Virus record (IMG/VR): IMGVR_UViG_2602041644_000008
Span: 1 to 37,809 of that record
DNA from: a virus
Lineage: Duplodnaviria > Heunggongvirae > Uroviricota > Caudoviricetes
Reading direction: 5' to 3' (one strand)
DNA length: 37,809 nt
In this document: piece after piece, positions 5,937 through 36,378 of the stretch
Layout: every line of letters begins with the position of its first letter
How positions within the stretch are numbered: position 1 is the stretch's first letter
Notes under the pieces: generated by a model
Databases searched by the model: none
What the model saw: only the letters and a program-made list of their open reading frames with translations
What the model was told of the DNA's origin: nothing
Made by a program: the position numbers and the translations under genes

Positions 5937-6040
5937 GTTAAATCTCCAGATAGTCGCAGCACCCGTTGCGCCGCATATCTGGTTATTCTATTACCCAAAA
6001 AACCATATATGGATAGAAAGACTGTGAATATGAATAGATA

Positions 6041-6055
6041 TTACCTTTCAGGTAA
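6041..6055. promoter_or_regulatory. Operator copy (exact TTACC-N5-GGTAA)
   Basis: TTACCTTTCAGGTAA, intergenic, about 50 nt upstream of the LexA box and small antirepressor gene. Preceded by TAGATA. Confidence 0.75.
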
Positions 6056-6092
6056 TTTGCAAAACGTGCTGGATAGCAAACAAATTATTTGC

Positions 6093-7140: not shown

Positions 7141-7160
7141 TGCTTTTCCTCACAATAACA

Positions 7161-7175
7161 TTACCTTAAAGGTAA
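7161..7175. promoter_or_regulatory. Operator copy (exact)
   Basis: TTACCTTAAAGGTAA, 20 nt upstream of the start of the minus-strand Zn-ribbon gene. On the minus strand it is preceded by AGATAT (-10-like). Confidence 0.75.
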
Positions 7176-7224
7176 TATCTTGCTTTCAGGTGATCAAGCG
7201 TTAAACGCAATCAACCAAATAAGG

Positions 7225-7254
7225 TTGATTTTAATATTTCTTCGCGTTTATCAT
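7225..7254 (+). promoter_or_regulatory. Sigma70-like promoter for the antirepressor leader
   Basis: TTGATT-N18-TATCAT. The -35 hexamer is the right arm of an 8-bp inverted repeat AATCAACC-N6-GGTTGATT (7209-7230). The last T of the -10 is the first T of the operator at 7254. Confidence 0.5.
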
Positions 7255-7268
7255 TACCTTTTAGGTAA
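7254..7268. promoter_or_regulatory. Operator copy (exact)
   Basis: TTACCTTTTAGGTAA, abutting the -10-like hexamer TATCAT. Confidence 0.75.
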
Positions 7269-7381
7269 ATTTACATCGCACTCCTCTTGTGCCATAGTAA
7301 TTGGGCACTGGCAAAATCCAGTGCCGGGATTGGTCTCCCGGATTACTACAGAGGCACATATGCCGCATAAGCGGTTTTTTT
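7262..7381 (+). ncRNA. Candidate small RNA / terminated leader upstream of the Bro-N antirepressor gene
   Basis: No credible ORF. Hairpins GGCACTGG-CAAAAT-CCAGTGCC (7304-7325) and CCGGGA-TTGGTC-TCCCGG (7325-7342), then CCGC-ATAA-GCGG + T7 (7363-7381). The start is inferred from the promoter above. Confidence 0.35.
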
Positions 7382-7535
7382 ATGTGTAAAGCGCACCTAT
7401 TCTATGGTGAGCTGTGTGGGGGCACCGAAAGGTGCGCCGGGTTCCTTTGTAGCCGGTAAGACCAACTCTGCACAGTTCACCACCATCTGATTGGTCTCAG
7501 CGGTGGTGATTAACCTAACTACAAAGGTGATCGCC

Positions 7536-8272: not shown

Positions 8273-8301
8273 TTGCAGACCGGGGGTGAATAGCGTACTA
8301 T
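8273..8301 (+). promoter_or_regulatory. Sigma70-like promoter of the YafO-like cassette
   Basis: TTGCAG-N17-TACTAT. The last T of the -10 is the first T of the operator at 8301. Confidence 0.55.
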
Positions 8302-8315
8302 TACCTTAAAGGTAA
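8301..8315. promoter_or_regulatory. Operator copy (exact)
   Basis: TTACCTTAAAGGTAA, identical to the copy at 7161. Confidence 0.75.
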
Positions 8316-8357
8316 ACCTGTTTTTATTTTATACCTGTAACTTACCGGAGATTAAAG

Positions 8358-9432: not shown

Positions 9433-9448
9433 GGCCGCGAAAGCGGCC
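9433..9448. terminator. Bidirectional terminator between convergent genes
   Basis: GGCCGC-GAAA-GCGGCC (GNRA loop), with an A-run on the left and TGTTTG on the right. Confidence 0.7.
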
Positions 9449-9455
9449 TGTTTGA

Positions 9456-10307
9456 TCACTGTGCAGTTTTCGCTGATCGATTTTCAGCTCTAAATTCAAG
9501 AACCGTTTCAATATTTCTTTCCTTCAGCATATCAATAACATTTTTATTCACTTGACTATCACTGGTTAATAACTGGTAAACGTTGCTTCTCTCTTTATCA
9601 GAGTTTTCTTTAACAGCTGCTTTGCATGCCAAATGCTTATTGAAATTTTCTACATCGCTAGTACAGGAATTTACGGCTGCTGATGAAATATCAGACGCTG
9701 AAGAAACACCATCATCCAAACGTTTTATAGCATTTTCTATACATGAGTTAAGGGAATAAACGACAACTGAGCGATACCCTTCAGACGCACACCATTCTAA
9801 ATTTCTTGAAGGATCGAGTGGTTTTACTTCGCTGGATTGAATTAACTTGTCAAAAACTGACTTATATTCAATCTGTTTTTTATCTATAGCCCATACTTCA
9901 GTAGCTGATTTATAATTCCCCGTATGCCTATTAACATCAAATCCATGTTTTATAAGCAAATCTGCCCATGAAAGATTTATTGATTCATTGTTATGAGGCC
10001 ATTTTCCTGTCAGAACCGCCCCCATAGACCCCATATATCCGCCATATGATGGTATAGCACCATGGCTCAGTAACTTCTCAGCAACCACAGGGCAATTAAT
10101 TACATAAGAGGCGTAAAGCCCATTCCATAAAGCCCCTCTATAGTAATCGCCACGATTAGGTTCTTTTAAGTCGATAGCCTTTGATAATTGTTCACACGTT
10201 TTGCATGCATCAAAGTTATCCTTATTGCATTGCAATGAACTGGCAGCTGTAGGATTTACAGAGACTATTGAAAGCACTATGCCAAAAAACAAATTTATTT
10301 TTTTCAT
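9456..10307 (-). CDS. AT-rich periplasmic protein of unknown function (possible ankyrin-like repeats)
   Basis: 283 aa with signal peptide MKKINLFFGIVLSIVSVNPTAA. Motifs EKLLSHGAIP and ADLLIKHGFDVN resemble the ankyrin LLxxGAxxN signature. Many Cys. ATG lies 2 nt after the stop of the 1129-aa gene. Confidence 0.6.
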   Translation of the reverse strand: MKKINLFFGIVLSIVSVNPTAASSLQCNKDNFDACKTCEQLSKAIDLKEPNRGDYYRGALWNGLYASYVINCPVVAEKLLSHGAIPSYGGYMGSMGAVLTGKWPHNNESINLSWADLLIKHGFDVNRHTGNYKSATEVWAIDKKQIEYKSVFDKLIQSSEVKPLDPSRNLEWCASEGYRSVVVYSLNSCIENAIKRLDDGVSSASDISSAAVNSCTSDVENFNKHLACKAAVKENSDKERSNVYQLLTSDSQVNKNVIDMLKERNIETVLEFRAENRSAKTAQ

Positions 10308-17484: not shown

Positions 17485-19955
17485 CAGAATCCCCCAACAG
17501 TAAGGCGAGGAATAACGGCAAGAACAGACAGCGGCAACGGATCAAGCTGACGGATTTTTACACGTCCGTTTTTGCCCCAGTTACTGTCCAGTTTCACTTC
17601 TACTTTTCCGGTAGCATCATCAACAGGATCATCGTAGAACTCGAATTCACGCTGTGGATATTCGTACCATTTACCGCCGGGCGTAGTCGCCCAGATGCCG
17701 CGACTGGCATTCACAACCAGAGTAACGGAGGGGATCACCTGTTTTTTGTCCAGCAGCGTTTCCTGTCCGTTAATGTTGATATCCAGTGTTTCGAATTCAG
17801 CAGTTATTGGCAGGCCGATGTGCACTACAGCCCCCGGAGATTCCAGCGTGACGGCACCTCCGGAAACCACTTTCTGTGGTTCCACGTTCGCATCAGAGAG
17901 AATGTTTACGGTCTGGCCTTCAAGATGAGACAGGCCTCCAAATGTCCGGCGCGCCATCTGCCAGTTCGTGGTGGCCACATTCCTGAGGGATGGCGGGACG
18001 TTCCTGTTAGCACGAACCACTACAGCGGTGTTGCTGGTTACAGAAATAATGTCGCAACGTAATTCTTTTGACACTTCATCGCCAGTATCAGGATCAGTTC
18101 CGGTATAAGGGAACTGTAGTTGCGCGCCGACATCACTACTGGTGAAGTACGCACCACCAGAAACACTGATTGTATATTCCGCATGGTAATCCCATTCACC
18201 AGAACCACCAGTGATGGTCATCGTTCTGTCAGACGTATTTCTTCCATCATAGCTAAGGCCAGAATCAACAAAGAAAGCATCTTCATCGCTGGTAAATAAA
18301 CGGCTGGACAGTCGCTCGATGTATCTCACTGTTTGCCCGTTAACGGTTCGGTTAACGACGAAATACACCGCATCTTCATTGCCTTCGCTGATACTGCATG
18401 TGCTTTCATATTTTCCGGTACTGGATTGTGGTGCCCATGCAAAAACCTGCTGATCACGCAAATAGGTCATCACCAGTAATTTACCGTCATCACGAATGCA
18501 GAAGGCACTGGAGTAAGGGACAATCGAGAAGCACCAGTCAACAATGCTGTGCTTCTGAAAAAGATGATTGGCAAGGATGGTCAGGTCGTTCCCCTGATAG
18601 CCGTCAACATCGAATGAGTAGGCCAGATCACGGACAACGCTGCCTTTCTCCTGGACGAACAGAGCAATATTCGCCACGGCAATTGGCGGGACGTTGCTTG
18701 AGCCATTTGATCCCTGAGAGCTGAATGCAAATGATGATGGGGTTAACACTTTGTTCTGGTCGCCGGTGATGACGTACTCACCTCCGGAAGTCAGCGCCAC
18801 CAGAGAACCAACATCAATCAGGTGACGGATCTCATTAACCTGACGCCCGGCATAGGTGTAGATAATTCTGTCGTCATCCTGCGTAGGATTGCTTTTGCCA
18901 AAATCCTTATAATCCCCGGTACGGCTGGCCCAGATAGTCTGAGGGAACGCAGTCGATGCGGCGAAGTAAAGACGTTGTTGATAATAAACAACAGTGCCAG
19001 GATAACCATTAACACTGTTCCAGGCATATTTAGCCCATTTATAGCTGGCATTATCCTCGCCAACGACCTGCGAAGGGATATAGGAAATCACCTCGGCAGT
19101 TGCAGTAGTTCCATTTGCAGCAGTGATACGGGCAATGCCAAAACCACTGTGCAGATATTCCCACTCAATGCCGGTATCATCATCACCGGATCCGCCCCAG
19201 CCATCCCATGATGTGCCTTCTGTATGCGAAGGGCGCAAAGTGCCTGTTTTACCTGCTGTAACAGCGCGATAGTAGTTACTGTCTGCACGGCGAACATCGT
19301 CAATCGACGTACTCTTACTGGTTTCCCATACCGGCACTGAATCCACTGCAGGCTGTTCCAGATAGAACAATTTGCCTACCTGCTCCGAGCCAAAAATAGA
19401 GGCGCTTGCCGTTAACGTAATTGTCCCGGTGCTGGCGCTGGCATAAACCGTCACTGACTCGTCAATATTGATATCTTCAAATGGTCCGTTCTTCGTTACC
19501 ACATCAACCAGTTGCCAGTTGTCATGCGCATAGCGACGCAACTCTTTCGGCGGGTATGCCGGATGAACCAGCGTAAGCACGTCTGCGCTTTGCGTGAATT
19601 TAATTCGGAACAGATCGGCTTCAGTATATGGCGTGGCAATTTCATAAATAACATTGCTGCTGTTCAGCACCAACGCACCATCTTTGATAACGCGCATGTA
19701 CTGGTGTCCGAACTCCAGAGCATAGGTCTGAACCGTCGAGAACTGGAACGGGATCAGGCGGCATTTCCGATTTTGGTATTTGGCGGCACCGACAAAACGC
19801 GTACCAGGTCGATTCTCAACGCCGCCATACTGCCGCACGATAAAGTTATCGCACTTGCGCAATGCTACCTGGTACTTCGCCATGTCAATACGCCCGTACA
19901 ACGACGGTCCAATCTCACCACCGGCAAAACTGGGCTGGATCCAACTGATAGCCAT
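17484..19955 (-). CDS. Tail hub / nozzle protein (tail tubular protein B-like)
   Basis: 823 aa, beta-rich. Lies directly after the adaptor candidate and before the ejection proteins, as in T7-type podoviruses. Confidence 0.55.
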   Translation of the reverse strand: MAISWIQPSFAGGEIGPSLYGRIDMAKYQVALRKCDNFIVRQYGGVENRPGTRFVGAAKYQNRKCRLIPFQFSTVQTYALEFGHQYMRVIKDGALVLNSSNVIYEIATPYTEADLFRIKFTQSADVLTLVHPAYPPKELRRYAHDNWQLVDVVTKNGPFEDINIDESVTVYASASTGTITLTASASIFGSEQVGKLFYLEQPAVDSVPVWETSKSTSIDDVRRADSNYYRAVTAGKTGTLRPSHTEGTSWDGWGGSGDDDTGIEWEYLHSGFGIARITAANGTTATAEVISYIPSQVVGEDNASYKWAKYAWNSVNGYPGTVVYYQQRLYFAASTAFPQTIWASRTGDYKDFGKSNPTQDDDRIIYTYAGRQVNEIRHLIDVGSLVALTSGGEYVITGDQNKVLTPSSFAFSSQGSNGSSNVPPIAVANIALFVQEKGSVVRDLAYSFDVDGYQGNDLTILANHLFQKHSIVDWCFSIVPYSSAFCIRDDGKLLVMTYLRDQQVFAWAPQSSTGKYESTCSISEGNEDAVYFVVNRTVNGQTVRYIERLSSRLFTSDEDAFFVDSGLSYDGRNTSDRTMTITGGSGEWDYHAEYTISVSGGAYFTSSDVGAQLQFPYTGTDPDTGDEVSKELRCDIISVTSNTAVVVRANRNVPPSLRNVATTNWQMARRTFGGLSHLEGQTVNILSDANVEPQKVVSGGAVTLESPGAVVHIGLPITAEFETLDININGQETLLDKKQVIPSVTLVVNASRGIWATTPGGKWYEYPQREFEFYDDPVDDATGKVEVKLDSNWGKNGRVKIRQLDPLPLSVLAVIPRLTVGGF

Positions 19956-23150: not shown

Positions 23151-23447
23151 TCACTCCTGTTCACTGGCCTCTTTGGCCATCTTCAAATACTGTTCAGGGC
23201 AATGCGCCATAACGCGCTGAAACAGTTCCAGCGCCAGATTGCGTTGCCCCTCATTAAATGCCATTGCCATAGCGTCCATCGGTGAGATAGCGGAAAACAC
23301 ACGGCCTTTCTCCAGCACCGACCAGACAACGCGACGCCCCTGTTCACTGCTCATGACAAAGCGAATGTCATCAATTTCACGCTGCGCCATGTCACGTTGC
23401 TTACGGGCGTTTTCTTCTTTCAGTTGATCGTCTTCGTAATCTGTCAT
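23151..23447 (-). CDS. Small conserved head-module protein, function unknown
   Basis: 98 aa. Overlaps the portal stop (ATGA type) and ends at the scaffold SD. Confidence 0.6.
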   Translation of the reverse strand: MTDYEDDQLKEENARKQRDMAQREIDDIRFVMSSEQGRRVVWSVLEKGRVFSAISPMDAMAMAFNEGQRNLALELFQRVMAHCPEQYLKMAKEASEQE

Positions 23448-25344: not shown

Positions 25345-25434
25345 ATCAATGACTCCGTACGCAATTAAATTATTACCAATTTAACCACATATGATTTATT
25401 TATCGTAGATAATTGACATTTAACGCACGAGTTA

Positions 25435-25449
25435 TTACCTTTCAGGTAA
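25435..25449. promoter_or_regulatory. Operator copy (exact)
   Basis: TTACCTTTCAGGTAA, identical to the copy at 6041. A TTGACA hexamer lies at 25413-25418 on the plus strand, 16 nt upstream. Confidence 0.75.
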
Positions 25450-25771
25450 GCAAAGAGTTCATTCCGGTTATTAACCTGACTGGCTTGTCGTTAAATTGAA
25501 CAGGTGGAGTGAGCTTTTATTTTGAGCAGTACGGCGTATGGCACATGCGCCGATAGCGGTCTGGATACGTTTAAGGGGTACCCTCCCTTGCTCGGGCAAA
25601 CGAACCAGGTAGCCGGAATGTGCAAGTCGAGCGGTTTTATTCCGCGCACGGGGATTCACCATCCCGGCGATTCGGTGTGACGCCTCGGAAGAGACGAGGG
25701 TACAACGATGAGAGCATTTATGGAGCCGCGACAAAGTGTGGCGCCTTAACAGGCTAAGTGCTCTCAGCGTT
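25450..25771 (+). ncRNA. Unassigned structured noncoding segment, probably co-transcribed with the downstream tRNA
   Basis: Stops occur in all three plus-strand frames. Long-range pairing GTACCCTC (25578-85) with GAGGGTAC (25696-703). Local hairpins TTGC-UCGG-GCAA (25588-99), CGGAAT/ATTCCG (25614-19 / 25639-44), GGGAT-TCACC-ATCCC (25651-65), GGCG/CGCC (25666-69 / 25681-84) and AGAGCA/TGCTCT (25711-16 / 25759-64). I could not assign it to a known family. Confidence 0.45.
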
Positions 25772-25848
25772 GTGGCATTAGCTCAGTTGGACAGAGCAAC
25801 CGCCTTCTAAGCGGTTGGTTGCAGGTTCGAATCCTGCATGCCACGCCA
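25772..25848 (+). tRNA. tRNA-Arg (anticodon UCU, reads AGA)
   Basis: Hand-folded 77-nt cloverleaf: acceptor GTGGCAT/ATGCCAC, D arm GCTC-AGTTGGACA-GAGC, anticodon arm ACCGC-CTTCTAA-GCGGT, variable loop TGGTT, T arm GCAGG-TTCGAAT-CCTGC, discriminator G, encoded CCA. Confidence 0.9.
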
Positions 25849-26046: not shown

Positions 26047-26403
26047 ATGAACGACCAGCAAATCGAAAAAGAAATCGTTGAGAAAGGCAAAACCGCTCCG
26101 CGAGTTACGCCTCAATATATCGAAAGCATCATTCTTGAAGAGCATTTCTTTACTGCTTATGACGGCATTCGTGCTGCCAATATGGGCGTTGGCGATACGT
26201 GGACAGCGCATAAATCTACAGACCTCCTTACTTTCTGCGTACTGGTGCTGAAGAATGGCTTCACCGTCACCGGAGAGAGCGCATGTGCAAGCCCGGAAAA
26301 CTTTGATGCAGAAATTGGTCGGAAGATTGCCAGGCAGAATGCTGTAAACAAAATCTGGATGCTTGAAGGTTACTTGCTGAAGCAGAAGTTAAGCGAGCAA
26401 TAA
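26047..26403 (+). CDS. Gp49-like phage protein (N4 gp49 / Sf6 gp66 family), function unknown
   Basis: 118 aa, SD AAGGTGAG. The block NGFTVTGESACASPENFDAEIGRKIARQNAVNKIWMLEGYLLKQ matches my recollection of that family. Confidence 0.7.
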   Translation: MNDQQIEKEIVEKGKTAPRVTPQYIESIILEEHFFTAYDGIRAANMGVGDTWTAHKSTDLLTFCVLVLKNGFTVTGESACASPENFDAEIGRKIARQNAVNKIWMLEGYLLKQKLSEQ

Positions 26404-26407
26404 CACC

Positions 26408-26419
26408 GTGACATGTCAC
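26408..26419. repeat. 12-bp perfect palindrome GTGACATGTCAC, copy 1
   Basis: Lies between the Gp49-like stop and its terminator. The 14-mer CGTGACATGTCACA is identical to the copy at 28672-28685. Confidence 0.7.
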
Positions 26420-26423
26420 AAAC

Positions 26424-26452
26424 AGCCAGCCTATGAGCTGGCTTTGTTTTAT
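26424..26452 (+). terminator. Terminator after the Gp49-like gene
   Basis: AGCCAGC-N6-GCTGGCT followed by TTGTTTTAT. Confidence 0.7.
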
Positions 26453-26493
26453 CCTCACCAGAGGATATCAACGACATTATCCCCACCAGCGGA

Positions 26494-27969
26494 TTAAGCA
26501 TAGGGATCGTAATCTGTAATGGCCTTGCCTTGCTGGTTCTGCTGACCTGGAATTCGCAGACGCTTCGACACAGGGAAAGCAAACGTCAGCAATAGCGCAT
26601 CGCCTTTACCCGGCGAACGCCCAAGCCGCTCCTTGATATCTTCCTTCGGTTCGATAACGATTTTACCGTCCACTCGAACTTTGTACTCTGCCGCCGACAG
26701 GTCGTCCGCTGTTTCCTGGTCATCAAGCATCCCGCCCAGCCTCAGCCATGTCTTGCATGAGTTGAACATCTCCCCACGCTTGTTGAGCATCTGCGGGTCA
26801 GTAGACGCGCCACCGAACGGAACAAGTTGCCATGTGCGCCCCCAACCGTCACCGATTGACTTCAGACCGGTACCGTAACCAAAGTCGATGAACACTGCGT
26901 CAGCCTGATACAGGTCTTCAAAGTCAGCGATACGCTTCGCCATAATCAGATCGTCGGTAGTCTTGTTGCCAGTCCACAGCACCTTACTGTGTAGCCCCTG
27001 CCGCAGGTATATCACCGCGTCATCAACGCCTGAATATGCCGGGTCAACACCGATTATCACCGGAGCATGCGCCACCTGCGCAGCGGTTACCACCCGTTTC
27101 ATTGCCTCATCAGTAAGACCGGTAGGGATAAACTGCAATTCAGATGCATCAGGGAATATGCCGCGCACACGGATTTTAACGAAGTCGCTGTCTTCCCCGT
27201 AGTCATCAACCCATTTCTGCAACTGCTGTTTGTTAGTGCCTTCCACCGTCCGGCTGTCAATCTGCGCAGTTTTCCAGCGGTGTTTATATTTGCGGAAACA
27301 TTCGCGGAAACGCCCGGTGTTACGTGTAGGGTTTCCGAACGCCACCCAGATAATCTCAGTGTCTTCGTCCGTAAGCGCACCCTCAGCAACTTCCCACACC
27401 AGATCCGCAATGTTCGACGCTTCATCGAATACCACGATGATGCGTTTGCGCTCGTTGTGTAGTCCGGCGAATGCCTCAGTGTTGTGCTCAGACCAGGGTA
27501 TTGCGTCAGCCCGCCACCGCTTGTCGTGCCCAGGGTCATTGCTGTACATCGCGGTAGCGGTACAGGTAAACCAGTCTTTCGTGATAGCAAGGTTAGACCA
27601 CTTGATAATTTCCGGCCAGGTCTTCGTTCGTAGCTGGTTGTCGGTGTTAGCGGTCACCACAACCTTACAATCCTCGCAAGTGGACATGCCCCAGTTGATC
27701 AGCATTGAGATGAATGCGGATTTACCAATACCGTGACCAGAAGCGCGTGCCAGCATAAGCGGCTGATAGCGCGTCTCTGGATTCTGCAGGTGATCACGTA
27801 TCTCTCGGAACGCATCAGCCTGCCACTGACGTGGGCCGGTGGCATGTGCCAGTTCAGTCCCCTCTTCCCCCCACGGGAACGCATAGAGAGCATAGCCAAG
27901 CGGATCGTGAGTGAACCCTGCAATATCCTCGATCAACTGCTCTTCAGGAGATAACGCTGTATCTGTCAC
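26494..27969 (-). CDS. Terminase large subunit
   Basis: 491 aa. ATPase-like N-terminal half (ARASGHGIGKSAF Walker-A-like; IIVVFDEAS Walker-B-like). ATGA overlap with the small-subunit gene. Confidence 0.85.
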   Translation of the reverse strand: MTDTALSPEEQLIEDIAGFTHDPLGYALYAFPWGEEGTELAHATGPRQWQADAFREIRDHLQNPETRYQPLMLARASGHGIGKSAFISMLINWGMSTCEDCKVVVTANTDNQLRTKTWPEIIKWSNLAITKDWFTCTATAMYSNDPGHDKRWRADAIPWSEHNTEAFAGLHNERKRIIVVFDEASNIADLVWEVAEGALTDEDTEIIWVAFGNPTRNTGRFRECFRKYKHRWKTAQIDSRTVEGTNKQQLQKWVDDYGEDSDFVKIRVRGIFPDASELQFIPTGLTDEAMKRVVTAAQVAHAPVIIGVDPAYSGVDDAVIYLRQGLHSKVLWTGNKTTDDLIMAKRIADFEDLYQADAVFIDFGYGTGLKSIGDGWGRTWQLVPFGGASTDPQMLNKRGEMFNSCKTWLRLGGMLDDQETADDLSAAEYKVRVDGKIVIEPKEDIKERLGRSPGKGDALLLTFAFPVSKRLRIPGQQNQQGKAITDYDPYA

Positions 27970-28562
27970 TGATTACCATCCTGACGTTCTTTGAGTCGCT
28001 TCCTGGCTGCCGCTATGCGATCAGCAATTGTCACATTCACATTAACATCCAGGCGTTCTTTGAACGCGTTGACATCAACATGCTTACCAATCAGCTCAAG
28101 GTTCTTCACCTTGTCAGGCCATTTAATTTTTTTGAGGATTGTCTCTATCGAATCCTCGTTCATGTTCATGATGGTCGATGACAGATCAAAGCCACTAAGC
28201 GTAGTGCGCCAGATTTTCGGCCACTCACGGATTGGTTTAAGGCTCCCATCGTCGTTGAGGATGTCGATCACGTCCATCTGGTCGATCTCCACCAGGCGCA
28301 TGAGAACGTAATCAGCACTGACGCGCATTCGTTTGTTGCGCTCCTCCATCAACTCGGCAATCCGTTTTTGAATGCGTTCATCGCGCATCATGACACTGGC
28401 TTTAACTGCCGCTGTATTTGGGGAGAATCCTGCGTTAATCGCTGCCTGAGTTTGGTTTTCAGGCGTTTTGATGTATGACTGGCAATAAGCCTCCTGCATT
28501 GTTGTTAGTGGCTTAAATTGCGTTGATTTGCGTTTATAGGTTTTAGGTTCAGCAGGCATCAT
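27966..28562 (-). CDS. Terminase small subunit
   Basis: The track ORF extends to 28640, but that extension contains a terminator hairpin and two operator copies. ATG 28562/28559 (MMPAEPKTYKRK...) follows SD GGTGG. The HTH-like segment QEAYCQSYIKTPENQTQAAINAGFS is typical of Terminase_2-type small subunits. Confidence 0.75.
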   Translation of the reverse strand: MMPAEPKTYKRKSTQFKPLTTMQEAYCQSYIKTPENQTQAAINAGFSPNTAAVKASVMMRDERIQKRIAELMEERNKRMRVSADYVLMRLVEIDQMDVIDILNDDGSLKPIREWPKIWRTTLSGFDLSSTIMNMNEDSIETILKKIKWPDKVKNLELIGKHVDVNAFKERLDVNVNVTIADRIAAARKRLKERQDGNQ

Positions 28563-28576
28563 AACCACCGTGGTAA
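28562..28576. promoter_or_regulatory. Operator-like copy (1 mismatch) over the terS SD/start codon
   Basis: TAACCACCGTGGTAA, 18 bp centre-to-centre from the exact copy at 28580. Confidence 0.5.
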
Positions 28577-28579
28577 TAG

Positions 28580-28594
28580 TTACCGTTGTGGTAA
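28580..28594. promoter_or_regulatory. Operator copy (exact) in the terminase leader
   Basis: TTACCGTTGTGGTAA, about 20 nt upstream of the terS start. Confidence 0.7.
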
Positions 28595-28600
28595 TAGTAC

Positions 28601-28631
28601 CATGCAAAATAAAGCCGCCATAGTTGGCGGC
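28601..28631 (-). terminator. Rho-independent terminator in the late-operon leader
   Basis: The minus strand reads GCCGCCA-ACTA-TGGCGGC followed by TTTATTTTG. It lies between the palindrome at 28673 and terS. Confidence 0.7.
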
Positions 28632-28672
28632 AGTATTCAAAATCCATCAAATTCATCATGCATAATCTACTC

Positions 28673-28684
28673 GTGACATGTCAC
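28673..28684. repeat. 12-bp perfect palindrome GTGACATGTCAC, copy 2
   Basis: Overlaps the TGA stop of the 115-aa gene, about 40 nt upstream (minus-strand sense) of the leader terminator. Confidence 0.7.
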
Positions 28685-29028
28685 ACTATTAATTTCGTTT
28701 CATGCCAGCCTTTAGTCACCCAGCATTGCGAGTCACCATTACACGGGCATGAATTAACGGGAACTCTCTCGCCGCACTTACCGCAAAGTTTTCTGCTGAT
28801 CGATTTTATACGCCCGCGCACACGTGCATCATCCTGGCGGATCAGCAGCGCGATGTACTCGGCCATTTCATAGGGATCGCGACCAGGGCGCCGGGCGGCG
28901 CAGTTCCGCGCCAGCATTTCCTGCTCCTGCTTATCCAGCACCAGTTCAATTTTGCGCTCACCGGCGGCGGACTGCCGAGCGCGCTGCGCGGCTTTGCGTT
29001 CTGCGGGGGATTTAGCCACGAATCGCAC
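28681..29028 (-). CDS. Small basic protein with C-terminal Cys cluster; candidate late-gene regulator
   Basis: 115 aa with a GTG start. Arg/Ala-rich N-terminus (KSPAERKAAQRARQSAAGERK) and C-terminal CGKCGERVPVNSCPCNGDSQC. Last gene before the late leader. Confidence 0.55.
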   Translation of the reverse strand: MRFVAKSPAERKAAQRARQSAAGERKIELVLDKQEQEMLARNCAARRPGRDPYEMAEYIALLIRQDDARVRGRIKSISRKLCGKCGERVPVNSCPCNGDSQCWVTKGWHETKLIV

Positions 29029-33174: not shown

Positions 33175-33177
33175 GAT

Positions 33178-33192
33178 TTACCCATGAGGTAA
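33178..33192. promoter_or_regulatory. Operator copy (exact) abutting the DUF1064 start codon
   Basis: TTACCCATGAGGTAA; ends 4 nt from ATG 33174 (minus strand). Confidence 0.7.
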
Positions 33193-33233
33193 TTAAAAAC
33201 CACATAAGACACGAAATCAATAGATCTTAGAAC

Positions 33234-33261
33234 ATTTTATTACCTAGCAGGTAATTATCAA
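33234..33261 (-). promoter_or_regulatory. Near-consensus internal early promoter with an exact operator copy (33240-33254) filling its spacer
   Basis: The minus strand reads TTGATA-N16-TAAAAT, and the 16-nt spacer contains TTACCTGCTAGGTAA. A weak GCGC-GATA-GCGC + T7 hairpin lies just upstream at 33270-33289. Confidence 0.65.
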
Positions 33262-35105: not shown

Positions 35106-35185
35106 GGTAAGCCCTGTTATTAGTATTGGGATTACGGTCATTTTGTGCTGACACAAAAAAAAGATCAACCACATTTGGTTATTTA

Positions 35186-35200
35186 TTACCTTTGAGGTAC
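35186..35200. promoter_or_regulatory. Operator-like copy (1 mismatch)
   Basis: TTACCTTTGAGGTAC, immediately downstream (minus-strand sense) of the post-cro terminator. Confidence 0.45.
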
Positions 35201-35206
35201 GAATAG

Positions 35207-35568: not shown

Positions 35569-35570
35569 AT

Positions 35571-35585
35571 TTACCTGTTGGGTAA
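35571..35585. promoter_or_regulatory. Operator copy (exact) in the switch region
   Basis: TTACCTGTTGGGTAA. Overlaps a plus-strand TTTACC-N18-TAAATT promoter-like pair facing the repressor gene. Confidence 0.7.
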
Positions 35586-35640
35586 TATTGCTTTAAATTG
35601 AATCATCTTCTGATTCAGATATGAGGCGATTTTCCAGAAA

Positions 35641-36270: not shown

Positions 36271-36282
36271 TTGCCTATTTGA

Positions 36283-36297
36283 TTACCTAACGGGTAA
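36283..36297. promoter_or_regulatory. Operator copy (exact), upstream of the early-left promoter
   Basis: TTACCTAACGGGTAA, 20 nt upstream of TTGACA. Confidence 0.7.
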
Positions 36298-36316
36298 TTT
36301 TTTTAACTCATATCTA

Positions 36317-36345
36317 TTGACATCAAACCAGATACGCATAATTAT
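36317..36345 (+). promoter_or_regulatory. Early-left (PL-like) promoter
   Basis: TTGACA-N17-AATTAT, bracketed by operator copies at 36283 and 36345. Confidence 0.55.
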
Positions 36346-36359
36346 TACCTCAACGGTAA
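36345..36359. promoter_or_regulatory. Operator copy (exact) at the -10/+1 of the early-left promoter
   Basis: TTACCTCAACGGTAA. Confidence 0.7.
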
Positions 36360-36378
36360 CAGACCGAGGTAACAAGTT

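Follow-up and report, generated by a model that had tools for sequence, protein, structure and literature searches.

Here, by comparing sequences across phages, we identify the palindrome GTGAC-NN-GTCAC as a conserved DNA site that travels with the gene of a small, predicted DNA-binding protein in many unrelated temperate phages. In the window (the whole stretch of viral DNA analysed, 37,809 nucleotides) the site occurs as two copies of GTGACATGTCAC, one of which overlaps the end of a gene encoding a 115-aa protein. The best explanation, to which we assign a probability of roughly 0.55, is that the palindrome would be the operator of this protein and would control the boundaries of transcription units. 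The parts of this explanation differ in firmness: the palindrome is very probably the cognate site of the 115-aa protein family, and the function of site and protein may be transcription-boundary control, at odds somewhat short of even. The window features concerned are as follows.

9433..9460, minus strand: third junction, the end of the late structural operon, with terminator GGCCGCTTTCGCGGCC and AGTGATCAAACA ahead of it
25434..25450, no strand: operator-like site where the next late unit (small gene and portal gene) begins; epsilon15 equivalent at 2931-2947
25772..25848, plus strand: tRNA-Arg(TCT), sharing with the Gp49-like gene the opposite-strand insert that separates terL from the portal gene
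26047..26403, plus strand: Gp49-like moron gene (PF13876), with site B at its 3' end
26408..26419, no strand: site B, GTGACATGTCAC, 4 nt past the Gp49-like stop and 4 nt ahead of the terminator
26424..26443, plus strand: terminator hairpin common to the converging Gp49-like gene and terL; an annotated terminator in phiV10
26494..27969, minus strand: terL, 491 aa
27966..28559, minus strand: terS, probable true start MPAEPK at 28559 (compare the epsilon15 terS start)
28561..28595, no strand: two repressor-operator-like sites, ATTACC-N5-GGTAAT with 1 mismatch each, between terminator and terS
28614..28631, minus strand: intrinsic-terminator-like hairpin GCCGCCAACTATGGCGGC plus T run, 41 nt downstream of site A, closing the early operon
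28673..28684, no strand: site A, GTGACATGTCAC, overlapping the TGA stop (28681-28683) of the 115-aa gene; the primary, gene-linked copy
28681..29028, minus strand: gene of the 115-aa protein, the predicted and probable site binder

The sequence-only reading had reported an identical pair of perfect 12-bp palindromes, one after the Gp49-like stop and one overlapping the stop of the 115-aa gene, and our coordinates agree: GTGACATGTCAC is present exactly twice, at 26408-26419 and 28673-28684, both copies share the 14-mer CGTGACATGTCACA, and a search allowing 1 mismatch adds no further match in the window (0.06 expected; 0 of 100 shuffles reached 2). Its statistics were also about right, with about 9 perfect 12-bp palindromes expected compared with a shuffle mean of 10.1 (the window holds 7), and a probability of 0.01 for the duplication compared with a p-value of ~0.024 for the window only (47 of 2000 dinucleotide shuffles). 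This within-window p-value is weak by itself, and conservation in relatives is the decisive evidence. In terms of geometry the description of the pair as flanking the terminase genes is correct, with site A 113 nt ahead of terS, site B 75 nt beyond the terL stop (26494), and the two copies bracketing terS-terL, but it is misleading in that the copy near terL goes with the 3' end of a moron on the opposite strand. At each window copy the gene stop comes first, then the site and then an intrinsic terminator, which assigns site B to the end of the Gp49-like moron gene rather than to terL.

The surroundings of both sites can be read with the help of annotated relatives. In epsilon15 the counterpart of the hairpin at 28614..28631 is annotated as a terminator (39646-39672), and an operator is annotated at the place equivalent to 28561..28595 (position 12-27). 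The mechanical open reading frame and the phiV10 annotation both start terS at a TTG at 28640, which would take in the terminator and the operators; homologues of the 115-aa protein begin at a codon near 29019. At the third junction (9433..9460) the site is absent or degenerate in the window, and relatives carry there GTGACATGTCAC, a single A and then the terminator. A candidate sigma-70 promoter over site A (GTGACA-N18-CATGAT, 9/12) was rejected, there being 4 such matches in the region against 4.3 expected.

Comparison with relatives, which the sequence-only reading had put forward as a check, found both the site and its position to be kept in epsilon15, phiV10 and IMG/VR relatives. The Salmonella phage epsilon15 has 3 exact copies, each at the end of a transcription unit beside an annotated terminator (two on gene stops, that of gp49 at 39612 and that of gp18 at 19517, and one past terL at 2142), and phiV10 has both window copies, site B exactly and the other with a single mismatch. 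Among close IMG/VR relatives, site A is retained in 79 of 80 despite differing sequence right after it, and site B is exact in about 60. More broadly, 9 of the 16 lineages sampled, with N15, ZF40, P2-like Yersinia phages and metagenomic phages among them, have GTGAC-N2-GTCAC no more than 20 nt from the start or stop of a homologue of the 115-aa gene; simple arithmetic gives an expectation of ~0.04 occurrences per 40 kb. In most site-bearing lineages the TGA stop of the homologue is the TGA of the half-site (G-TGA-C). For example, GTGACTGGTCAC runs across the stop of N15 gene 46 and GTGACGCGTCAC across that of gp13 in a Yersinia P2-like phage, while TGTGACATGTCACA stands immediately past the stop of ZF40 gp22. 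The overlap with the stop recurs at 92 of 102 further IMG/VR loci and extends to divergent homologues of 28-31% identity, in which the site lies over the stop (L318, L323, L324), over a GTG start (L311), or 15 nt ahead of the start (L312). Two lineages have several GTGAC-N1-GTCAC sites in place of N2, which indicates that spacing varies by protein lineage; for 4 of the 16 lineages no site was found in the DNA retrieved. Across lineages the half-sites are invariant, spacing alone varies, and the centre of N2 sites is free in sequence. Because the half-sites never change, covariation between protein and site cannot prove recognition. On this comparative record the gene and its primary site form one co-inherited unit, and duplication of the palindrome by chance alone, for which the unimpressive window-only p-value might have left room, is rejected as having negligible probability, given that epsilon15, phiV10 and ZF40 have exact copies at homologous junctions and at further ones, and that in N15 and in Yersinia, Vibrio and metagenomic phages homologous genes are accompanied by the same half-sites and spacing.

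At 50% identity the family of the 115-aa protein divides into ~180 clusters; its carriers are the temperate phages, prophages and phage-plasmids of enteric bacteria and vibrios. No Pfam, NCBIfam or PADLOC family matched the window protein. An AF2 model built from a diverse alignment reached a pLDDT of 93.3 (59.8 for an earlier model from a shallow alignment) and predicts a basic N-terminal helix, a ribbon-helix-helix (RHH) core and a domain with four cysteines, C82, C85, C94 and C102, spaced C-x2-C-x8-C-x7-C in the family. The monomer model has the beta-alpha-alpha fold that defines RHH proteins, and its second RHH helix runs into the four-cysteine domain. RHH proteins act as homodimers that read the major groove of a palindrome through their paired beta-strands, and a palindrome with fixed spacing is consistent with such a dimer. 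Searches with RHH models of Pfam gave sub-threshold matches only (RHH_5 at 0.013, RepB-RCR_reg at 0.028 and RHH_1 at 0.071, each in 1-2 of 57 members), and a Foldseek search of the pLDDT-93.3 model against the PDB gave no match. Four fusion proteins (P0253, P0248, P0123 and P0163) look like products of gene calling or deletion and were set aside as giving no functional hint.

The four-cysteine domain has a moderate profile likeness to TraR, one of the TraR/DksA C4 zinc-finger proteins (F TraR, lambda Orf73, P2 Orf82). These too are small mobile-element proteins in which a CxxCG..P zinc domain stands between a long helix and a C-terminal helix, and members of the family bind RNA polymerase at its secondary channel. 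YbiI and TraR rank top in an hmmsearch against the PDB (E ~0.05), and hhalign against TraR gives a moderate likeness (probability 69-71%, P ~4e-5, TraR residues 5-65), compared with 0.2-0.4% for the controls MatP, DksA (0.4%) and Ogr (0.3%) and about 2% (2.3%) for P2 Orf82. The Pfam model zf-dskA_traR (PF01258) matches neither the window protein nor any of 57 family members, and matches TraR itself at 1.7e-13. An apparent correspondence in position between P2 Orf82 and the Yersinia homologue proved wrong, Orf82 lying before gene A and the Yersinia gene after it. TraR-family proteins bind RNA polymerase, and TraR depends on a DxxDxA tip at its N terminus, which extends to the polymerase active site (PMC9239242); the binding partner of TraR is RNA polymerase, not DNA (PMC6970531). 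The tip is not conserved in the phage family, where the residue aligned with TraR D6 is R50 and D3 is without counterpart; in comparison with TraR, the tip is replaced by a loop of the RHH domain, and ~50 residues predicted to bind DNA are added in front.

Additional copies of the site lie at the borders of transcription units or modules, often just upstream of terS. In the window and in epsilon15 the order is always gene stop, site, then intrinsic terminator, and other lineages have a copy immediately ahead of the lysis cassette and a further one immediately ahead of terS. A second site stands 19-28 nt ahead of terS in three lineages (K308, L318 and L323), where it occupies the gap between an HNH gene and terS, and an N1-spaced copy stands 55 nt ahead of terS in a fourth (L314). 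N15 has three sites, at 28.5, 33.2 and 39.3 kb, one of them inside repA, and the sole copy in P2-like Yersinia phages is at the gene end, far from cos. When read in the late direction the order varies, the site preceding the terminator at junctions 1 and 3 and following it at junction 2. A terminator is found near the site in 43% of distinct contexts compared with 8.5% of random positions, a figure that reflects epsilon15-type junctions and contexts that are not independent; as a general rule the association fails for the gene-end sites of N15-like and Yersinia phages. The palindrome was also considered as an RNA hairpin, a reading set aside because the stem would be only 4 bp and because the half-sites are kept in sequence and not by compensatory change. 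A full-text literature search with five 12-mer variants returned only two matches, both unrelated and mammalian (epidermal stem-cell).

For the operator reading, the following mechanism can be proposed. The 115-aa protein, made as the last product of the early operon, would read as a dimer the two GTGAC half-sites across a fixed 2-bp spacer of free sequence, would occupy the borders of transcription units, and would govern the behaviour of RNA polymerase there. It might do so by forming a roadblock or insulator, which would keep polymerase from reading through into the packaging genes or out of them and would limit the protein's own transcript, and its TraR-like domain may contact polymerase. 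Work by Abo and colleagues in 2000 reportedly found that LacI at O3, an operator overlapping the coding end of the regulator's own gene, acts as a roadblock that truncates its own transcript. The two arrangements share an operator at the 3' end of the regulator gene that would truncate the gene's own transcript and limit read-through. They differ in that the folds are unlike and in that the phage arrangement spans many lineages with extra copies at other unit borders, its roadblock effect being putative. Against a roadblock, a block 19-28 nt before the terS start codon would also stop late transcripts crossing there. Among proteins of the predicted fold, the RHH repressors and antitoxins (Arc, Mnt, CopG, MazE, ParD, TacA) are likewise small dimeric binders of short palindromes. 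Their operators lie in promoters upstream of their genes, whereas the phage site is at the stop codon of the gene and beside terminators, and the phage family has the extra Cys4 domain. A bolder, model-based and rather unlikely proposal is that these proteins represent a new class of polymerase factor, a TraR-type zinc module fused to an RHH domain and parked at unit borders by GTGAC-N2-GTCAC, where it would act on arriving polymerases (through pausing, termination or roadblock stability) and not globally from solution.

The extra copies also invite an unlikely reading in which the site is a recombination joint only, having no protein partner and serving either as a microhomology common to different phages that, along with the adjacent terminators, lets phage recombinases exchange morons and modules, or as the target of a site-specific cassette-exchange system. 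At three junctions in relatives, the site is the exact point at which variable sequence gives way to constant sequence. At junctions 2 and 3, several families of cargo genes have their ends 1-4 nt away from it, among them several different genes that, in close relatives, end exactly 4 nt from site B. In one case (L155) two cassettes stand in tandem, a hairpin and a site belonging to each, and epsilon15-type phages encode RecT/RecE-like proteins. These features resemble the boundary or linker sequences of phage mosaics, the ends of morons and, more loosely, integron attC, in that a short conserved element ends swappable cargo genes and tandem cassettes each finish in the element. In contrast to attC there is no integrase, and the element is a strict 12-bp palindrome of the type bound by proteins, tied to one regulator gene, rather than an imperfect structured site. 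The site is accompanied by no dedicated recombinase, and a role as joint only leaves unexplained both why the site is welded, in unrelated phages, to the stop or start codon of one DNA-binding-protein gene and why the half-sites and spacing are conserved around a free centre. The same breakpoints fit the operator reading as a secondary consequence: because a 12-14 bp site is common to many phages, it doubles as a joint for swaps of morons and modules. As a description, then, the module-exchange boundary suggested by the sequence-only reading is borne out, the mosaic breakpoints of relatives coinciding exactly with the site.

A role as late activator or antiterminator is distinctly unlikely. 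By analogy with lambda Q, the product of the last early gene would bind beside the terminators that stand between early and late genes and would allow read-through or initiation there, which would suit the place of the gene as the final one of the early operon, with the terminator and terS coming next, the lack of an annotated Q-like gene in epsilon15, and the polymerase contact suggested by the TraR-like domain. Yet N15 and ZF40 carry Q-like antiterminators with their own late promoters in addition to the gene-site module, late transcription would meet the terminator before the site at junction 2, a promoter would not fit between terS and the copies 19-28 nt ahead of it, and the sigma-70-like match over site A does not exceed chance expectation. 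The earlier suggestion of a binding site for a late regulator thus divides in two: a regulator site is the best supported role, with the site locked to one gene family across unrelated phages and an RHH model for its product, and that regulator is only possibly the late one, given the Q-like antiterminators that accompany the module in N15 and ZF40.

The nearness of terS raises the further idea of a packaging accessory, in which the site-bound protein, as an auxiliary element of pac or cos, would assist terminase in locating or cleaving the concatemer close to terS. Cos sites of such phages usually lie in the gap between the HNH gene and terS, where the terS-side copies of L318, L323 and K308 are found; the recurrence of the site 19-28 nt upstream of terS in these three lineages, beside the N1 copy of L314 at 55 nt and the bracketing of terS-terL in the window with site A at 113 nt, leaves a link to packaging some room. 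The idea is nevertheless quite improbable, and the packaging-related site of the sequence-only reading finds no support as a general role. In the cos phage N15 the 12-nt cohesive ends are annotated at position 1, far from its three sites; P2-like Yersinia phages have only the gene-end copy, distant from cos; and one epsilon15 copy is found where the structural operon ends, at 19.5 kb. That the site opens the phiV10 and Tyrion records is a matter of convention, both having been cut after the stop of the last gene, and a physical end of the phiV10 genome inside the site was rejected, the record ending at the stop codon of its last gene. A search for literature on Uetakevirus DNA ends found nothing usable.

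The half-sites GTGAC and GTCAC are identical to those of E. coli matS, the site of the host protein MatP, which organises the Ter macrodomain, an identity that had been overlooked in the earlier note. The matS consensus is GTGAC[AG]N[TC]GTCAC, and prophages have been reported to avoid it (PMC3603311). Both systems have palindromic sites, several of them dispersed in each genome. They differ in that matS is 13 bp with a 3-bp spacer, whereas the phage site is 12 bp with a 2-bp spacer (1 bp in two lineages), and in their proteins, MatP having a four-helix bundle and a C-terminal coiled coil (PMC6538776) compared with one N-terminal helix and a Cys4 domain in the phage model. Sequence comparison gave no support for homology to MatP (BLASTP E of 13, hhalign 0.1-0.2%, no Pfam MatP match, with the MatP query verified against 4D8J), and only RHH similarity at the level of the fold remains. 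It is very improbable that the phage copies are sites or decoys bound by host MatP, even though the window site is matS minus its central base and the module-bearing phages infect host groups that presumably have MatP. The spacer is 2 and not 3 in every N2 lineage, the window contains no matS even at 1 mismatch, a host factor leaves the tight linkage to a phage gene unexplained, and the reported avoidance of matS by prophages argues in the same direction. In addition, matS is not known to be linked to the matP gene. The phage RHH domain and its GTGAC half-sites may be kin to, or the source of, MatP/matS, through a drift in spacing from N1/N2 in phages to N3 in the host, and the phage protein might then bridge sites as MatP does.

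Together, the gene and its site tie a short, exactly definable DNA element to an unnamed protein family that lacks a Pfam or NCBIfam model. If the protein binds the site, the palindrome would offer an annotatable cis-element for the borders of transcription units and modules in these phages, would explain where mosaic breakpoints and moron ends fall, and would provide a testable case of a TraR-like module gaining DNA-sequence specificity. The identity of the half-sites with those of matS raises the question of the origin of MatP/matS and of cross-talk between the two systems. phiV10, epsilon15 and N15 are all cultivable.

The 12-bp palindrome GTGACATGTCAC on either side of the terminase genes in this phiV10/epsilon15-type (Uetakevirus) prophage is a conserved cis-element, linked to the gene family of a 115-aa protein encoded beside it. 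Both copies that the sequence-only reading had placed at 26408-26419 (site B) and 28673-28684 (site A) are present, share the 14-mer CGTGACATGTCACA, and are the sole matches in the window at up to one mismatch (0.06 matches expected; none of 100 shuffles gave two). Perfect 12-bp palindromes as a class are represented by 7 examples against 10.1 expected. Chance duplication of such a palindrome, previously judged improbable, is indeed rare (47 of 2000 shuffles, p ~0.024), but is only mildly unusual if the window is judged alone, and the decision rests on comparison with relatives. A two-mismatch relative, GCGCCATGTCAC, lies within the gene after portal (23384-23395), and many close relatives carry the one-mismatch form GTGACATGGCAC at the equivalent position; it may be a site of low affinity or simply a coincidence within coding sequence.

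Late genes are on the minus strand, and their elements are ordered as follows.

Elements around the terminase genes, in minus-strand order
28681-29028, minus strand: 115-aa gene
28673-28684: site A, containing the TGA stop of the 115-aa gene
28631-28614, minus strand: terminator-like hairpin, 41 nt past site A
28561-28595: two operator-like sites, between this hairpin and terS, which is followed by terL
26443-26424: hairpin between terL and site B
26408-26419: site B, past that hairpin

Beyond site B lies an opposite-strand insert, consisting of a Gp49-like gene (PF13876) and a tRNA-Arg, and past this an operator-like site (25434-25450) and the portal unit. Read on the plus strand, the Gp49-like gene ends in its stop, CACC, site B, AAAC and a terminator, and therefore both sites obey one rule: gene stop, site, terminator. 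The positions around the terminase genes thus hold, but site B is part of the 3' end of the Gp49-like moron (an interchangeable extra gene), not of terL.

With up to two mismatches allowed, the window holds 16 copies of ATTACC-N5-GGTAAT, the repressor-operator motif of epsilon15 (1.26 expected).

Copies of the repressor-operator motif
6040-6056, 7160-7176, 7253-7269, 8300-8316
25434-25450 and 28561-28595, immediately upstream of the portal unit and of terS
33177-33255, 35185-35201, 35570-35586, 36282-36360

Each late unit therefore seems to bear a prophage-repressor site, as in the epsilon15 annotation. In the mechanical ORF and the phiV10 annotation terS starts at TTG 28640 and so takes in both operator-like sites and the terminator hairpin; translation probably begins instead at ATG 28559 (MPAEPK), matching the epsilon15 annotation. 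Neighbouring Rfam matches lie at 7305-7381 (isrK, 74.7 bits) and 7400-7487 (C4 antisense RNA, 78.2 bits), a pair that we take to be small-RNA antirepressor control as in P1/P7 immI and N15 immA.

Within the same phage group, motif and position are largely kept together in phiV10, epsilon15 and 80 IMG/VR relatives whose terL is 99-100% identical. Of the 80 relatives, 79 have site A, while site B is exact in about 60 and has one mismatch in 7. PhiV10 retains site B unchanged and has a single mismatch in site A, where its record also starts, simply because the cut was placed behind the final gene's stop codon. The epsilon15 sequence is strongly divergent outside the sites, yet three exact copies are kept, at all three junctions of consecutive rightward transcription units, each with an annotated repressor operator further downstream.

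Copies of the palindrome in epsilon15
2142: just past the terL hairpin
19517: covers the gp18 stop, with an annotated terminator 2 nt further on
39612: covers the gp49 stop, with an annotated terminator 22 nt further on

At the third junction of the window, where the late structural operon ends (9433-9460), there is no site, and AGTGATCAAACA precedes the terminator at 9433-9448; relatives L012, L076, L077 and L092 read GTGACATGTCAC-A-terminator here, and the window has either lost this copy or never gained it. In epsilon15 (L203) a two-mismatch form, GTGACATGGCAT, lies at the extreme end of the lysis cassette (26618-26629, Rz/Rz1 stop).

Homologues of the 115-aa protein were found by tblastn in phages of Vibrio, Yersinia, Klebsiella, Pectobacterium and others, N15 gene 46 among them.

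Sites at homologous genes in other phages
ZF40 gp22: TGTGACATGTCACA, immediately past the stop
N15 gene 46: GTGACTGGTCAC, over the stop
Yersinia P2-like phage gp13: GTGACGCGTCAC, over the stop
Vibrio phage K308: GTGACACGTCAC, two copies, one 226 nt past the gene, the other ending 19 nt before terS
L318, L323, L324 (28-31% identity): GTGAC-N2-GTCAC, over the stop
L311: GTGACAGGTCAC, providing the GTG start codon
L312: GTGACAGGTCAC, 15 nt upstream of the start
L314/L315 (11222, 14056) and L320 (7631, 7662), two divergent family lineages: GTGAC-N1-GTCAC

Searches with the N15, Yersinia and Vibrio proteins brought in 102 further loci, and 92 of these have the site across the stop codon. With a chance expectation for GTGAC-N2-GTCAC of ~0.04 per 40-kb genome, the site lies within 20 nt of gene boundaries in 9 of 16 lineages; two carry multiple 11-bp GTGAC-N1-GTCAC sites in its place, and in four no site was found in the DNA retrieved. 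N15 has a second copy in the 5' region of the repA reading frame (L310 33237-33248), kept in all N15-like loci examined, and a third at the repA operon end, before a terminator. Five IMG/VR fragments unrelated to the window (L026, 12274; L053, 1463 and 6515; L112, 2009, 5267 and 7190; L105; L116) hold two or three GTGAC-NN-GTCAC sites, with no family gene in the fragments fetched; in L026 a terminator hairpin immediately adjoins the site.

The centre varies by lineage (AT, TG, GC, AC, CC, AG), the half-sites do not, and within a lineage their spacing is fixed, a pattern characteristic of sites read by a dimeric DNA-binding protein. In E. coli, matS has the consensus GTGAC[AG]N[TC]GTCAC (PMC3603311), and the window site is matS minus its central base, so that one half-site pair recurs at three spacings: N1 (two family lineages), N2 (the 12-bp site) and N3 (matS).

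The 115-aa protein has no Pfam, NCBIfam or PADLOC match, its only family match being PHROG 536, 'transcriptional regulator'. In a set of 1.84 billion proteins its small family accounts for 182 representative clusters, with lengths almost always of 105-135 aa. Common to its members are a basic stretch at the N-terminus (RK..QR.R), four cysteines and, in the second helix, a Glu and a Leu that never vary. The structure predicted from a shallow alignment was poor; a good one (pLDDT 93.3), built on 57 diverse sequences, shows helices at 8-22, 33-45, 55-77 and 103-111, with an extended segment between the first two and a Cys-rich stretch (80-102) before the last. YbiI and TraR were the top PDB sequences for the family profile (E about 0.05), and hhalign aligned family residues 49-109 with TraR residues 5-65 (Prob 69-71%, P about 4e-5), against 0.2-2.3% for MatP, DksA, Ogr and P2 Orf82. 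TraR and its phage homologues bind RNA polymerase, at its secondary channel, by three elements: a helix at the N-terminus tipped by DxxDxA, a zinc domain of the C4 type and a helix at the C-terminus (PMC9239242); in the 115-aa family the DxxDxA tip is not conserved, and a ribbon-helix-helix (RHH) loop stands there instead. We interpret the protein as an RHH core for DNA binding that passes, through its second helix, into a TraR-like zinc module, the predicted RHH part being well supported and the TraR-like part suggestive.

Copies of the element are positioned at unit borders and mosaic joints. Two flank the lysis cassette in K308, L318 and L323, the second 19-28 nt upstream of the terS start codon, and in L314 the N1-spaced copies precede the lysis cassette and, by 55 nt, terS. 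In the window group, sequence changes abruptly between relatives just beyond the site: site A is followed by the usual leader or by an additional small gene, the ribosome-binding site of which directly adjoins site A; opposite-strand cargo genes (Gp49-like, or coding for a 113-aa protein or for one of three versions of a 140-aa protein) all end exactly 4 nt from site B; and three different morons at the third junction stop inside the site or within about 3 nt. Two of these three have, by eye, signal-peptide/lipobox-like N-termini. L155 carries two tandem opposite-strand cassettes after terL (about 6491 and 6884, 0-based offsets), each ending in its own hairpin and GTGACATGTCAC, which suggests that a cassette was gained when unequal exchange took place at the site. 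The abrupt changes, cargo ends and tandem cassettes therefore mark the site as a module-exchange joint too, bearing out the boundary role first proposed for it. A pure recombination joint would nevertheless fit the gene-site linkage less well than a regulator does, as would a packaging accessory or the target of a late activator or antiterminator; host MatP binding, for all the likeness to matS, is likewise a poorer fit to this linkage.

Regulators of the RHH type with palindromic operators are familiar; the 115-aa family itself is unnamed, and the five 12-mer variants of the site had no phage-context match in a full-text literature search. New here are a candidate operator built into the stop codon of its own regulator in many phage lineages, half-site identity with matS, coincidence of the site with module borders, and a regulator that may be fused to a TraR-like module. 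In the regulator reading, the 115-aa protein would be made at the early operon end, bind the site as a dimer, limit its own transcript and control polymerase traffic at unit borders, its TraR-like module possibly touching the polymerase, and the shared site would secondarily favour recombination between phages.
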